The notes beneath the pieces are model-generated. The model saw only the letters and a program-made list of their open reading frames with translations, made no database searches and was not told the DNA's origin. The position numbers and the translations under genes are program-made. DNA of 55,029 nucleotides, the filler included, from Stramenopiles sp. TOSAG23-2 (taxonomy: Eukaryota), in NCBI GenBank assembly GCA_900128395.1. It is 5 parts of 5 records of this genome, joined end to end, with 100 filler letters (N's around TTAATTAATTAA, not from the genome) between each part and the next. Parts side by side here need not be neighbours in the genome. Positions count along the whole stretch, not along the records: positions 33,090 to 44,013 come from LT649978.1; 4 more parts are not named here. The stretch is one strand, 5' to 3'. Shown piece by piece: positions 31,735 through 37,899 of the stretch. How positions within the stretch are numbered: the stretch's first letter is position 1; each line of letters begins with the position of its first letter.

Positions 31735-32640
31735 ATGTTTTTATCAGTTATGAATCGTTGTAAAAAAATAATAAATACAAAATCAACATTATTATCACAA
31801 CAAATGATACGCCGTAAAAATAATAATAAGAAAAAATGGTTTTCCTCATCATCTTCAAAGACAGTTGCAGAGGAGCCAGTTAAAAAGAAAGGCTATTGGA
31901 ATTCAGCAGAATTTTGGGGTGGTGCAGGTGCAATCGCTGGTTGGGGTATGACAGGCGCTGCGATATACGATGCGACGAAGTTAGGACCAGAAGTGATTTC
32001 GATGAATATGACATCGGTTATGTTAGTCTATTCTTCATTATTTGCACGTTGGGCATGGGTAGTTCAACCACGTAATATTGCATTAGCAGCATGTCACGTA
32101 TCAAATGTACTTGCACAAACGAATCAAATGCGACGTGCATTGGAACATAAAATAGCAAACGGTTTCGAAGACGAAGTGAAAGCATTTTTAATGAAAGCTG
32201 GTGGGTTTGCAGCTGGTATTGGTGCATTGATTATTGCGGGACCTACATTACAAGCTGGTTTTGTGAGTGCAAATTTAGGACCAATTTCTGCTGCAAGTGC
32301 AGCACCAGCAGGTCCATTTACTGTCCATTTCTGGGCACCAATGTCTAAATGGTTAATAAGCGGTGCATCGTTTTTAGATTTAGATCGTCCAACGGATAAG
32401 GTTAGTCTATCGCAATATACTGCATTGACATTGACAGGTTTTTTCTTTAGTCGATATGCAATGCTTGTTACACCAATTAATTATTTATTATGTAGTGTGA
32501 ATATTGCATTGTTTGGTAGTAGTGCATGGCATTTAGGTAGAAAAATTAAAGCAGATTATATTGATGAGAAACAGAAACCAACAACAGGAACAGGAACAGC
32601 GACAAAGGAAGAGGAGGAGGAGGAGAAGGAAACACATTAA
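31735..32640 (+). CDS. Mitochondrial pyruvate carrier, fused MPC1+MPC2 in one chain
   Basis: First half FWG...GWG..AAIYD..GPEVIS.NMT..YS.LF.RWAW.VQPRN.AL.ACH..N...Q is MPC1-like. Second half PAGPFTVHFWAPMSKW...D..RP..K.S..Q..AL..TG....RY....P.NY.L..VN is MPC2-like. Confidence 0.92.
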   Translation: MFLSVMNRCKKIINTKSTLLSQQMIRRKNNNKKKWFSSSSSKTVAEEPVKKKGYWNSAEFWGGAGAIAGWGMTGAAIYDATKLGPEVISMNMTSVMLVYSSLFARWAWVVQPRNIALAACHVSNVLAQTNQMRRALEHKIANGFEDEVKAFLMKAGGFAAGIGALIIAGPTLQAGFVSANLGPISAASAAPAGPFTVHFWAPMSKWLISGASFLDLDRPTDKVSLSQYTALTLTGFFFSRYAMLVTPINYLLCSVNIALFGSSAWHLGRKIKADYIDEKQKPTTGTGTATKEEEEEEKETH

Positions 32641-32989: not shown

Positions 32990-33089
32990 NNNNNNNNNNN
33001 NNNNNNNNNNNNNNNNNNNNNNNNNNNNNNNNNTTAATTAATTAANNNNNNNNNNNNNNNNNNNNNNNNNNNNNNNNNNNNNNNNNNNN
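32990..33089. other. Artificial contig linker
   Basis: N44-TTAATTAATTAA-N44. Confidence 0.99.
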
Positions 33090-33453
33090 CTCTTTTATAT
33101 CTTTCAATTAATAAATAAAGTCTTCTCGCTGGATGTGAAAGTCTCATCTCATTTATACTTCTTCTACCTACATAACCAATACTCAATGCTACATCACGTA
33201 CACGCTCAAAATCATCACATCCAAATGCTTTTCTACATTGTTGTATTAAAGAAGATCGTTTCACATTACATAATGATCTAATATCTAAATTTAGAAGTAT
33301 ATTTGTCATTATCCCGCAGGCAGACTCAAATCCAGCTGGTAAAACTAATATACCAATTTCAATAGGTTCCGCACGTTCTTCCTCTAACGCTTCAATGGTA
33401 GACTTCTTCAGTCTCTTTTTTGGTGGTGGTTGATAAGTAGTTATTGATGCCAT
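33090..33453 (-). CDS. Unknown protein, N-terminal fragment (possible NLS and F-box-like segment)
   Basis: PPPKKRLKK basic motif. LP......IMTNILLNLDIRSLCNV weakly resembles an F-box. Runs off the contig end. Confidence 0.5.
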
Positions 33454-33803
33454 GTTGTATGTTTTTCTTCTTTATCTTCTCTATCTTCTATATCTCTTTA
33501 TATCTATCTATCTCTATCTATATATTTATTTATTTAATTCATTCTTAGTTGTCATGAAATAAATGCAATTGAACGAAATATGATGGAAAAAATTAAAAAA
33601 AAAAACAACAAAATGTTCATATGTGGAGAAATGATTGTGAAAACAAGAAGAAAAAATCGAACAGAGAACGTATAAGCATCGAATGGTAAAATTCTGTTAT
33701 ATATTTTAATGATACGAACACACACACACACACACACGCTGACCATTAAACATTTTGAAACGCCCGGTGGGGAATTTTGCAGGATTCATCACTATGCATA
33801 CCT

Positions 33804-35846
33804 CTACCTGTTGTTTAATAAATATGCAAAACCTACTGTCGCTGTAGCAGTTGCTGCAAATAGTAAATTATTTGAATCTGCAAATCTTCTATTAATGTTC
33901 GACCATATACCATTATCACCCCAATCCCCATCGGCATCATCTATATCATTATTACTACTACTACTACTGCTACTATTATTACCAAAAGGAGTTCTACAAT
34001 TTGGACAAGTAGTTTTACCTTGTCCTTCTTTCCAAAGATTTAAACATTTACTATGAAAAACATGTTGGCATTGTTTAATTTGAGTTACTTCAATTAAACC
34101 ATAATTATTTGTAGTATATAAATTTTCTAAACAAATGCTACATTGTCTTGTAATATCAATAACGCGAGTTCCATAAAATTTATAATACAAAGCATCATGC
34201 TTATTCTTTAAATGAACATATTGCATATGATTACTAAATTTAGGTTTATAAATTTTTGCTTGTTCATCAATTTTTTCTGGTATTTCAAAGATATTACTTC
34301 CATCGTAACTACATTTTATCAATTGGTATACACCTCGAGATGTAGCTTCTTTAATATTTTCAGATACTAAATCTGCTCCAAGTATATCAGCTAACATTGC
34401 TTTCCATAAATTATTATTTTGTAATGCAGTGCCACTACAAAATATTTTCACGCCATTGCCTTCATTACCTTCCCCAAGATATGCTTTTAATCGATCGTAA
34501 ATCTCTTTCAATCTAAATCCAATAGCTTGAAGATGAGCAATTAAGATATCTTCCGGTGTTGTTGTAGTTTTAATACCTGTTATTGTGCCAGTAGCACTAT
34601 CAACCCATCCTGGTGCTCGTTCCCCATTTGGAAATGGTAAAATTGTTAAATTATGATGAAACAAACGTTTTTCATTTCCATTTTGATTTACATATTCTTC
34701 AAGATTCTTAGAATTATTACTATCCAATTTTACTGTCTTTTGAAGCCATTCATAGATAGATCCACCATCTGTTAAAGCACCACCTAATAATGAATATGTA
34801 CGATTGATTTTATAACACCATAATCCAGAAGGTATTTCTATACCTTCGAATTGAATATCATTTACAACAATTCGCATTGCTGCACTAGTACCTATTGTCA
34901 TAGCAACTCTCGTATCATTTGTTGCTTTTGAGCCAATATTTGCTGCTGCACCATCTCCAATGCCAAGAAAAAATCTAGTAGCACCTGTATTATATATTTC
35001 AGGCCACTTGCTACAATAGTTTACATTATTTGATATCTTTAAAACATTGTTATTATTATTTGTTCCATTATTATTATTATGATGATGATGGTTACTAGAT
35101 ATTTCCCAATATGAATCACCAATTTGACTAAAATCATTTGTGCTCATACCAATCAAATTTAATAATCCTTCATGCCATTCCAATGTTGACGACGGTGAAG
35201 AATGTGATGATGCTGTCATTCGATTGAAAAGTCCAGTCCAAGATGCCTCTGAAATACCAACTTTTACGTCACAATTTCCTGTCCATTTAGATAAAATATA
35301 AGATGTTAAAGTTGTCCATCGTTCTACCTTTTGAAATAATTCAGGTTCTTCATTTTGTACACATAATAACTGGGATGCTGCATATGATGCATGTATAGTC
35401 GTTCCAGTTTGTTGATGCAAAATCCATGAATTAATTTCATTTTGTCTGTAATGCGTTTTGATTAATTCTTTTAACCTATTTGTATAGGTTGCTTTCTTTG
35501 GATGATCATTTGCATATGTATATACAGGTGTAATGGCTTGAAGACCTTTTGAATGTGTTAATTCACACCCAACTAAAGACATTGCAAAACAATCAAAACC
35601 CACTGCTTTAATATTAAATTGATTTGCACCATCTTTTTCGCGTAGATATTCAATAGATTGATGTATACACAAATCAACACATTTAACAATTTCATCTGCA
35701 TTAAATGTACCAATTTCCGATTTCGATACAGGCTTTTGCACTATATGTATCGCTTCGTTATTATTATCATCATTATTTTTCTCAATATACATGGCACAAC
35801 GACAACTAGAACTACCAATATCAATGGTAAAAATATATTCCTCCAT
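33804..35846 (-). CDS. FGGY-family carbohydrate kinase (gluconokinase-like) fused to a RING-H2 finger and C-terminal hydrophobic tail
   Basis: TIDIGSSSCR, SEASWTGLFN, GIGDGAAANIGS, TIGTSAAMR, GGALTDGG, LPFPNGERAPGW, EATSRG, then CSIC...CQHVFHSKC...W...CPNCR, then LLFAATATATVGFAYLL. Likely start is MEEYIF at 35846. Confidence 0.9.
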   Translation of the reverse strand: MEEYIFTIDIGSSSCRCAMYIEKNNDDNNNEAIHIVQKPVSKSEIGTFNADEIVKCVDLCIHQSIEYLREKDGANQFNIKAVGFDCFAMSLVGCELTHSKGLQAITPVYTYANDHPKKATYTNRLKELIKTHYRQNEINSWILHQQTGTTIHASYAASQLLCVQNEEPELFQKVERWTTLTSYILSKWTGNCDVKVGISEASWTGLFNRMTASSHSSPSSTLEWHEGLLNLIGMSTNDFSQIGDSYWEISSNHHHHNNNNGTNNNNNVLKISNNVNYCSKWPEIYNTGATRFFLGIGDGAAANIGSKATNDTRVAMTIGTSAAMRIVVNDIQFEGIEIPSGLWCYKINRTYSLLGGALTDGGSIYEWLQKTVKLDSNNSKNLEEYVNQNGNEKRLFHHNLTILPFPNGERAPGWVDSATGTITGIKTTTTPEDILIAHLQAIGFRLKEIYDRLKAYLGEGNEGNGVKIFCSGTALQNNNLWKAMLADILGADLVSENIKEATSRGVYQLIKCSYDGSNIFEIPEKIDEQAKIYKPKFSNHMQYVHLKNKHDALYYKFYGTRVIDITRQCSICLENLYTTNNYGLIEVTQIKQCQHVFHSKCLNLWKEGQGKTTCPNCRTPFGNNSSSSSSSNNDIDDADGDWGDNGIWSNINRRFADSNNLLFAATATATVGFAYLLNNR

Positions 35847-37899
35847 AATATATATATCTATATATAATCCCTCTCTGTACACACGCCTATATATATATCA
35901 ATATATCAATATTATCGTTTTTTTCTCTCCGTTTCTCTGATATATTACAATGATGAATATACGAACACTTCTCTCTCTCTCTCTCTCTCTGTTGTTGTTC
36001 TTACCAACATCCTCCGATCAATATAGAATACACATTTGTTTCTTGTTTTTTCAAGTTGAAAGACGCCGCGCGGCCGGGAGGAAGAAGGAAGAACACTATT
36101 TAAGGTACGATACGGAAAGTTATAGACTACCACCGGTGGTACTAACAAAATAACTTACCTATATCTAGACTTTTTTCTTTTTTTATATTAAGGTAAAAAT
36201 CAACAATAAACTCAGGTATAATAAAACACTGTGCATGGTGTGATGAACTTTATTTTAGTGCGTACCAACGAAGTACGAAAAATGACAGAAAAGGAAAAAT
36301 ATCATGGTACGCGTCCAGAAATATCACAGGGAGCTGACTATTATTATATTTTATACCAACACGAAGAAGATATAATGCTATTACTACGGATGACAGCAAA
36401 AAAACGATTGGATGTGACTAGATTTATAGATATATGGAGTTAATTTTTTGGTTTTATTAAATTACGACTGTTCGTATTTTTTTGAAAATTTAAATTTATC
36501 GGAGAGACCTTTTTTTTTTCGATCCTCGTACGAACATTTCGTAACATATCGCGTTTGTTTGTTGTTGTTGTTGTTGTTGTTGTTAATATATATATATATT
36601 CCCCTCTTGTTTCTTATTAATTATATTATCTATAATATGGCCAATTGTACAATATATTTTAACCTCTTCGTCTTCCTCTCCCTTACTTGTTTCTTATACA
36701 GTACGCAGTGTATTTCACTCTCTAAACACATGTATCCGTATCCTCGTGTATATATAATTCAATTAATTTTGAAATAAAAATAATATAAAAAGAAGTGCAA
36801 AAACGACGTGATGCAAACGTTCAAATTCTAGACCAAATTCTCTCATCAAAAAATAATCATCCGTGCATCCGAAAAATGTGAACAGGTAGAAAGGATATTT
36901 GGCATGAAAATAGCTACCACACATCATTGAGGAAAAAGACGGGCATCTCAGCTCATGCAATTTCTTCCTGAAAATTGATAAAATATTTCCGCAAAACTGA
37001 TTTGATTTTTAACCTCATTTCACACTTTCCAATCAAAATTTATAGTCTATCAAGTATGCTATTTTAAAATAGCAGTGAATAGCACTGTTTTTAAACGTCT
37101 TTTGACACATCACACGCATTTAACAACTTTTCCTTGGTCTTTTCGTCTTTTCCCCAGTTGATAGAGGACTATTAGTGTACAAATATATATACTTATATAC
37201 TGTAATACATTGTTGACAAGTAATGACCAATGGATGAGGACCAGTTGTATTAAAAGAAAAATATAAGATTTTTACTAGAGTACGAGAGAATATATATATA
37301 TATATATATATATTTCAAAAATTTATAAACTCCCTCTGTTAAAATTTAAAAAAAAAAACTAAATTTTTTGCTCAATTTTTTGAAGAAAGTATTTTCTTGT
37401 GAAAGTATTTTCTTGTGGTGTTTTGTCCCCTGTGAATTTTTCCTTGTTGCTAGGTTTTTGAACAGTGAAAAAATCATATCTTCACATACTGTATAGTGTT
37501 ATTTATTTAGCATTGACACAGCAACCACTAAAAGTATGACCGGATTTCATGAATTTTTCCTTGCCAAAGGCATGTGCACATGTAATAAATTTTTAATGTG
37601 CACAATTTTATCTAATTTATTATTTTATTTAAATAACACATGCTGTGCCCTACTATGGCTATTTGTGTGGATACCTTATAAATTGTTCTAGAATTGTGGT
37701 AAGAGTAAAGCACTAAATATAATATGGATACAATTTTTTTTACTTTTAAAACTTCAATTTCATCATTTTTTACAGATGTTTATGTTTGCAACCAACACCG
37801 GACAGTGAGAGAGAGACACACACAAGAAAAAAAAAATATACTAAATCGGGTTTGCAGCATATTAGGATAGAAATAGCATCAAAATATATAATTTTGACT

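Follow-up and report, generated by a model that had tools for sequence, protein, structure and literature searches.

We describe a gene in a 55,029-nucleotide stretch of DNA from Stramenopiles sp. TOSAG23-2 (GenBank assembly GCA_900128395.1), referred to here as the window, that encodes an FGGY-type sugar kinase, a RING-H2 finger and a C-terminal hydrophobic segment in one polypeptide. This architecture, which an earlier note made from the sequence had proposed, is real: three Pfam domains score above their cut-offs, and the fusion is conserved in four or more other lineages, at 50–64% identity. The explanation that we favor, with a probability of about 0.55 for the whole, is that of a membrane-anchored protein with a working kinase and a working RING, belonging to a family of kinases that would already have been tethered to membranes when the RING was inserted.

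According to this explanation, two working modules would sit on a cytosol-facing protein anchored in the membrane by its C-terminus. The first would be an FGGY kinase, intact and acting on a sugar or sugar acid, nearest to FGGY-type gluconokinases, and the second, between the kinase and the anchor, a canonical RING-H2 finger that would recruit and activate an E2 enzyme carrying ubiquitin (E2~ubiquitin). The RING would have been inserted between kinase and tail anchor in one narrow clade. The kinase would phosphorylate its substrate at the surface of the endoplasmic reticulum (ER) or of the mitochondrial outer membrane, and the adjacent RING would ubiquitinate either its own protein, thereby setting its turnover, or neighbors on the same membrane. 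The kinase and E3 activities, the membrane insertion and topology, the organelle, the targets and any coupling to a metabolite are predicted from sequence.

The open reading frame (ORF) at 33804–35846 on the minus strand consists of 680 codons and a stop, without any in-frame stop before it and without Ns inside it, as the earlier note had claimed of its continuity. Given that, by our own arithmetic, about 8% of random codons would be stops at approximately 31% G+C, 680 open codons lie far beyond chance; the G+C content of the window is approximately 27–39%. The nearest in-frame stop upstream of the ATG is 12 codons away. The start position is shared by the fusion orthologues (MEEYIFTIDIG, MKEYIFTIDIG and MIDNYIFAIDIG), and the N-terminus of the window protein, MEEYIFTIDIGSSS, forms the first kinase strand, as it does in the orthologues. 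We are almost certain that the fusion gene is real, and regard it as one true gene of an uncultured marine protist, a eukaryote that is AT-rich and poor in introns.

Relatives are labeled P for proteins (P0001 being the window protein) and L for metagenome contig loci. Searching 5.8 billion proteins by shared words yielded at least 120 relatives, among which the RING was found in P0002 (99% identity), P0003 (63%) and P0004 (57%). P0004, at 680 amino acids, contains the whole fusion, and P0002 belongs to a 90% cluster of 35 proteins; among the members listed, 10 of 15 are full-length proteins of 679–680 amino acids, on contigs of 2.3–8.8 kb. Scanning of metagenome contigs gave seven loci, and in three of these DNA contigs (L001, L002 and L003) the fusion is an uninterrupted ORF, 99% identical to the window in L001 and 60 and 56% identical in the other two. 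The L001 contig is 8821 nt long, and the ORFs of L002 and L003 comprise 672 and 685 amino acids, respectively. The window and L001 differ at nine codons (four synonymous, five not), all in the kinase, which are too few for a test of selection.

A profile search of 1.84 billion representative sequences returned 5280 matches, of which only P0003 matched from end to end. A 172-amino-acid fragment from a further lineage, P0257, covers profile positions 509–668 and thus the end of the kinase, the RING and the tail. Within the best 150 of the 5280 matches, a Pfam check of 26 proteins of at least 587 amino acids, three fragments and P0139 (with P0003, P0026 and P0051 already annotated) revealed a RING in no FGGY protein besides P0003 and P0257. 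Over the kinase, the two full-length orthologues share 318–370 of 558 residues with the window protein. In the relatives, either the fusion stays within a single ORF or the RING is missing, and the arrangement that the earlier note had named as grounds for abandoning a fusion, a stop at the junction with the RING as a separate gene, was not encountered among them. Word-based searches with the RING-tail region (residues 556–680) found no stand-alone version among proteins of 30–373 amino acids (30 candidates) and only the cluster of the window protein itself among proteins of 374–1190 amino acids (293 candidates); such searches need shared five-residue words, so that distant relatives would be missed.

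The kinase was said in the earlier note to be complete, with DIGSSS, DGAAAN and GTS motifs, and all of these were found (DIGSSS at 9–14, GDGAAAN at 297–303 and GTS at 319–321), both Pfam halves being above cut-off. The longer motif GDGAAANIGS (297–306) lies just ahead of FGGY_C, and GTSAAMR (319–325) and SGTAL (471–475) lie inside it. In an alignment of 62 family members, residues conserved in at least 90% of sequences include D9, G11, S13, S14 and R16 in FGGY_N and D298, G299, N303, T317, G319, T320, G355, G356 and G472 in the FGGY_C region, with D9 and D298 presumably having phosphate-binding or catalytic-type roles. The window protein carries the consensus residue at all 51 of the columns conserved at this level, and the FGGY module therefore looks like a non-degenerate, working kinase. 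A His/Asn-rich insert between the two lobes is lineage-specific and varies among the orthologues. The C-terminal helices end in the family motif ...D.LY..FYG, which is the point where RING-less relatives either end or continue into an anchor of their own.

Kinase homology stops at about Y558/G559, the end of the RING-less relatives, and the RING therefore begins approximately 10 residues past the kinase, as had been proposed. The finger itself occupies exactly the interval first assigned to it (34142–33993, residues 569–618). Its ligands are arranged as C569-x2-C572-x20-C593-x-H595-x2-H598-x2-C601-x12-C614-x2-C617, followed by R618, which is a C3H2C3 pattern ending in CPNCR. We aligned six sequences from the junction to the end of the protein (the window protein, L001, L002, L003, P0004 and P0257), and the eight zinc ligands as well as W605, P615 and R618 are invariant in all of them; the residue before the second Cys is I or F in all six. 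Identity to the window protein across four lineages is 27–32 of 50 residues in the RING and 9–11 of 20 in the tail, compared with 4–14 of 42 in the linker between them, where only F621 and W648 are invariant, and these values indicate that the RING and tail are constrained like the enzyme whereas the linker is free. At the junction (residues 559–568), 3–5 of 10 residues are identical between lineages.

The best solved match for the RING in a search of the PDB was RNF24 (2ep4). We take the position right after the last Cys (CPxCR), which is R618 here, to be the linchpin, and the I or F before the second Cys, W605 and P615 to be the E2-contact positions. In PMC12326332, the Arg linchpin is described as stabilizing the closed E2~ubiquitin state and as important for the activity of RING E3 ligases. 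Given that the finger keeps both its fold residues and those that act on E2~ubiquitin, an active ligase is expected, and we consider the RING probably active as such.

How the two modules would relate to each other allows a further reading, which takes up the coupling proposed in the earlier note and in which the FGGY domain would be mainly a sensor, substrate-driven closure of its two lobes would alter the accessibility or activity of the adjacent RING, and the amount of sugar or sugar acid would thereby directly set ubiquitination at the membrane. The RING lies only about 10 residues past the last kinase helix, a short junction that is kept in every lineage, and it is as conserved as the kinase; moreover, FGGY kinases close their two domains when sugar binds, as described in PMC3245297. 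The retention of all catalytic-type residues gives the domain the look of an enzyme and not of a dedicated sensor, and simple co-anchoring accounts for the same data. To our knowledge, the C-terminus of FGGY kinases is not known to move on lobe closure, which also counts against metabolite gating. We regard such gating as unlikely, and as slightly less likely still its boldest form, a metabolic switch in which binding or turnover of a sugar acid would close the lobes and toggle the tail-anchored RING through the 10-residue junction. If the switch were true, carbon-metabolite supply would directly set the ubiquitination of the protein itself or of nearby transporters and enzymes on the organelle surface, and it would be a direct coupling of a small molecule to an E3 ligase in one polypeptide, evolved through insertion of a RING into an anchored kinase.

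It is also conceivable that the RING is not a ligase and instead serves as a zinc-stabilized interaction or dimerization module, or as a spacer keeping the kinase away from the membrane, the protein being functionally just an anchored kinase. Many RINGs are inactive alone or depend on partners, with the class VI TRIM RINGs providing an example (PMC6487577), and the existence of RING-less tail-anchored relatives, described below, implies that the kinase works there without a RING. We nevertheless find this reading doubtful, because the residues for activation of E2~ubiquitin are the ones kept in six of six sequences, and a purely structural zinc module would need none of them.

The earlier note had the protein end in a hydrophobic stretch followed by NNR, and hydropathy places this stretch at residues 661–677. 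Its mean Kyte-Doolittle (KD) value of 1.78 over 17 amino acids is the highest of any 17-residue window of the protein, and the corresponding values are 2.02 in P0003 and 1.77 in P0004. A664, A665, A667 and L677 are invariant in all six aligned sequences, and the orthologues end in NNH, RNSSTGTG, RNSHTGTG or GSNNGSR. No N-terminal signal sequence was found, the kinase beginning at residue 4. The layout is that of a tail-anchored protein, with a sole C-terminal hydrophobic segment and most of the polypeptide lying ahead of it, as judged by hydropathy only and at a borderline value. Given the lack of an N-terminal signal and the terminal position of the hydrophobic segment, the topology should be that of a tail-anchored protein with both the kinase and the RING facing the cytosol. 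A C-terminal glycosylphosphatidylinositol signal was rejected, given the lack of an N-terminal signal peptide, and a highly charged tail of the peroxisomal type is absent from the end of the fusion protein.

Hydrophobic termini are not confined to the fusion. The nearest kinase relatives, at 30–38% identity, come from oomycetes (Pythium, Phytophthora, Saprolegnia and others), from many unnamed sources and from some bacteria such as Caldilineae. This kinship with oomycete kinases hints at a stramenopile source for the gene, although it is no proof of one. The oomycete kinases and several unnamed ones have an N-terminal extension of 42–81 amino acids, with a hydrophobic stretch and then a basic cluster, and among the 255 family proteins that reach 400 amino acids, 40 have a hydrophobic window (KD of at least 1.5) ahead of the kinase, the named oomycete proteins included; the bacterial members lack such a stretch. 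Another RING-less set (P0139, P0013, P0007, P0142 and L004–L007) has no N-terminal extension and instead has a short linker, a hydrophobic end of about 20 amino acids with KD values of 2.1–2.4, and a basic tail such as RPRV, RRKY, VRKR or FRRR. The RING pattern is absent from all open frames of at least 100 amino acids in L004–L007, including the frames past the kinase. The hydrophobic anchor is thus not special to the fusion, and anchoring probably preceded the RING, which, given that the RING-less relatives appear anchored too, looks inserted into an already anchored kinase. The simplest reading of these patterns is that the eukaryotic branch of the kinase family is generally membrane-tethered, with the enzyme in the cytosol.

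Three observations on these relatives may be recorded separately. The hydrophobic stretch and basic cluster of the oomycete proteins P0006, P0010–P0012, P0015, P0045 and others could be a signal anchor. P0139, P0013, P0007, P0142 and L004–L007 look like apparently undescribed tail-anchored sugar kinases, with ends such as ...SYFRPRV and ...SYLRRKY, and this group is found on marine eukaryote-like contigs of 38–48% G+C. P0140, a protein of 563 amino acids on a long branch, has FGGY as its only Pfam domains and ends in ...MWCEICGKHESSHSGFES, which could be the start of a zinc finger cut off at the end of a contig.

A soluble protein, in which the hydrophobic C-terminus is not an anchor and instead forms an amphipathic or oligomerization helix or a degron, is a reading that the short, small-residue-rich and only borderline hydrophobic segment would allow, and the invariant AA.A pattern could be a helix-helix packing motif. 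The segment is nonetheless terminal in every lineage, with three to eight residues after it, and at the same place the RING-less relatives have clearly hydrophobic ends with basic tails, while other relatives carry a hydrophobic segment at the N-terminus, so that anchoring appears to be a common theme of the family. A non-anchoring tail therefore seems to us improbable.

Returning to the anchored, two-module protein that we favor, several points weigh against it in whole or in part. With regard to the substrate, the earlier note had called motifs of the kinase typical of FGGY gluconokinases, and this family does provide both the best match in the PDB (gluconate kinase 3gbt, E value of 1.5e-21) and the closest of 10 NCBIfam families (TIGR01314). 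The score for this equivalog was 117.5 bits, and its cut-off of 648.55 was not reached; glycerol kinase and xylulokinase follow closely behind. The substrate signature of GntK opens with successive Met-His residues according to the relevant part of PMC3245297, and the family of the fusion protein has I151-H152 opposite the Met-His of 3gbt, a comparison that concerns the first two signature positions only. Gluconokinase thus appears to be only the nearest label for the kinase. With regard to the membrane, the tail comprises only 17 amino acids, is rich in Ala, Thr and Gly, and at a KD of 1.78 is only borderline, a buried kinase strand reaching 1.34–1.75. A threshold of >1.75 for the grand average of hydropathy (GRAVY) in yeast ER tail anchors, and a difference in tail charge between the mammalian ER and mitochondrial means, are given in part of PMC5450235. 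The GRAVY of the fusion protein's tail, approximately 1.75–2.0, is close to the yeast threshold, and its charge of 0 to +1 falls between the mammalian ER and mitochondrial means; the assignment to ER or mitochondrial outer membrane is ambiguous, the two not being separable by yeast and mammalian rules, which may not hold in protists. With regard to the family, the N-terminal hydrophobic stretches of the relatives could be signal peptides or presequences and not anchors. A quick tree of 41 rows joins the RING clade to the tail-anchored clade with a Shimodaira-Hasegawa-like approximate likelihood ratio test (SH-aLRT) value of 88, this grouping collapses to a polytomy in one of 25 rows, and the RING clade has a long branch and an odd composition in the quick trees. 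Given that these trees are undecided, we do not claim descent of the RING clade from the tail-anchored clade, an idea resting on shared topology only.

The earlier note had looked to transcripts across the junction as a check. A search for sequencing runs gave 23, with part of the stretch present in 20 and with 13 recorded as RNA. RNA contigs were obtained from four poly(A) or oligo-dT runs of four studies; they are 151–366 nt long and of low depth, and DNA can occur in such libraries. Mostly at least 99% identical to the window, they cover the tail and RING (33769–34154) and parts of the kinase (34161–34636 and 35214–35870). No RNA contig in the four runs crosses 34155–34160, contig X3 ending at 34154 and X2 and X6 starting at 34161 and 34168, respectively. 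Both sides of the junction are thus covered and the bridge is missing, a gap in coverage that speaks neither for nor against a single transcript. An artefact, whether an assembly chimera or read-through of two neighboring genes, might be suspected from this unbridged interval and from the N runs 700 bases downstream of the gene, and is very improbable, because the ORF recurs without a break in three independent contigs (99, 60 and 56% identical) as well as in the further proteins P0004 and P0257, is free of Ns, and shows protein-level conservation of the RING and tail, the variable linker staying in frame.

To place the fusion among known systems, we compared it with proteins that resemble each of its parts. 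The FGGY-type GntK (3gbt/3ll3, TIGR01314) has the same two-lobed FGGY_N and FGGY_C organization, with the phosphate and catalytic-type motifs kept; the fusion protein differs from it in being eukaryotic and putatively membrane-tethered, in carrying a RING and in having Ile-His in place of Met-His. The RING-less tethered kinases (P0006, P0012 and others, and the tail-anchored set P0139, P0013, P0007, P0142 and L004–L007) belong to the same subfamily and have a single terminal hydrophobic segment, whereas the tail-anchored ones have no RING and a kinase-anchor linker of only about 10–25 amino acids. Mitochondria-bound hexokinase, which provides an analogy only, is likewise an actin-fold ATPase superfamily sugar kinase held on an organelle by a terminal hydrophobic tether; it is of another family, its anchor is N-terminal and it has no ubiquitin-ligase module.

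Among RING proteins, RNF24 and the small RING-H2 proteins of the ATL type share the C3H2C3 spacing (...C.H..H..C...W...CP.CR) and have an N-terminal transmembrane segment; in the fusion protein, the loop between the first and second ligand pairs comprises 20 residues and the RING lies on the C-terminal side of an enzyme. RNF5 has an N-terminal RING of the RING-HC type. Homology to RMA1/RNF5 outside the RING was not detected, the RING-tail region matching, in the PDB and in word-based searches, only RNF24 (in the RING) and the protein itself. C-terminally anchored RING E3 ligases are established, as described in part of PMC4021871, by RMA1/RNF5 and Rines/RNF180 of the ER, in which a C-terminal segment tethers a cytosolic RING to the membrane of an organelle, as proposed here; those proteins are without an enzyme domain.

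Among the best-matching papers in the open-access literature, we found no description of a fusion of an FGGY or other sugar kinase with a RING and none of membrane-anchored FGGY kinases, and no paper there turned up on oomycete gluconokinases. The earlier note had known of no described protein with this architecture, and none came to light either in that literature or among the best 150 of the 5280 profile matches. It is the combination that appears to be new, each part (FGGY kinase, RING-H2 and, by hydropathy only, tail anchor) being of a known kind. We rate the fusion as either a putative membrane-anchored RING ligase whose enzyme or sensor domain has no precedent or, equally described, a putative anchored sugar kinase with a built-in ligase.

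Table 1 Positions of the fusion gene, its parts and related loci
Feature	Residues	Position	Strand	Basis and remarks
Whole coding sequence	680 amino acids + stop	33804..35846	(-)	Stop codon 33804-33806; intronless; full-length alignment with orthologues
FGGY_N, with DIGSSSCR at 9-16	4-264	35055..35837	(-)	PF00370, 3.8e-10, 40.2 bits vs cut-off 28.8
His/Asn-rich low-complexity insert between kinase lobes	~250-271	35034..35099	(-)	Orthologue alignments
FGGY_C	315-506	34329..34904	(-)	PF02782, 1.1e-18, 68.2 bits vs cut-off 27
Kinase C-terminal helices, ending in ...D.LY..FYG	507-558	34173..34328	(-)	Alignments
Kinase-RING junction, GTRVIDITRQ	559-568	34143..34172	(-)	Open in window, L001, L002, L003, P0004 and P0257
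zf-RING_2	568-618	33993..34142 (for 569-618)	(-)	Pfam, 2.1e-9, 38.0 bits vs cut-off 27.3
Ser/Asn/Asp-rich linker, variable	619-660	33867..33992	(-)	Alignment
C-terminal hydrophobic segment LLFAATATATVGFAYLL, putative tail anchor	661-677	33816..33866	(-)	Hydropathy
Terminal NNR	678-680	33807..33815	(-)	Translation
RING-less kinases of the tail-anchored type		L004 4001-5614; L005 620-2257; L006 40-1821; L007 27-1781		ORFs, hydropathy

The window is gene-dense, and its long ORFs include common eukaryotic genes, namely those for a ceramidase, a PRP4-like WD40 protein, a copper ATPase, a DENN protein and DnaJ. An ORF of 301 amino acids at 31735–32640 on the plus strand contains two mitochondrial pyruvate carrier (MPC) stretches (PF03650, E value of 2.4e-47) and looks like a natural tandem fusion that unites the two MPC subunits in a single chain. 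At approximately 33000–33090, downstream of the fusion gene, N runs interrupt a 139-amino-acid ORF (33034–33453, minus strand) that matches no Pfam family, and the 3' flank of the fusion gene contains a (GT)n microsatellite at about 33715–33745. In L002 (2723–3991, plus strand) and L003 (3337–4458, plus strand), the fusion gene is directly followed by a gene for PanB (ketopantoate hydroxymethyltransferase; PF02548, E value of approximately 1e-104) with a long N-terminal extension. Given that the neighbor in the window differs from PanB, local gene order is not conserved between the window and these contigs.

The fusion clade is narrow and uncultured, and if the RING controlled only the turnover of its own protein, it would be a neat built-in regulator of narrower interest. 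If both halves are active, the protein would be a compact example of ubiquitination at a membrane being tied to a metabolic enzyme. The fusion would then also open a way into a branch of oomycete and marine protist sugar kinases that are membrane-tethered and apparently undescribed.

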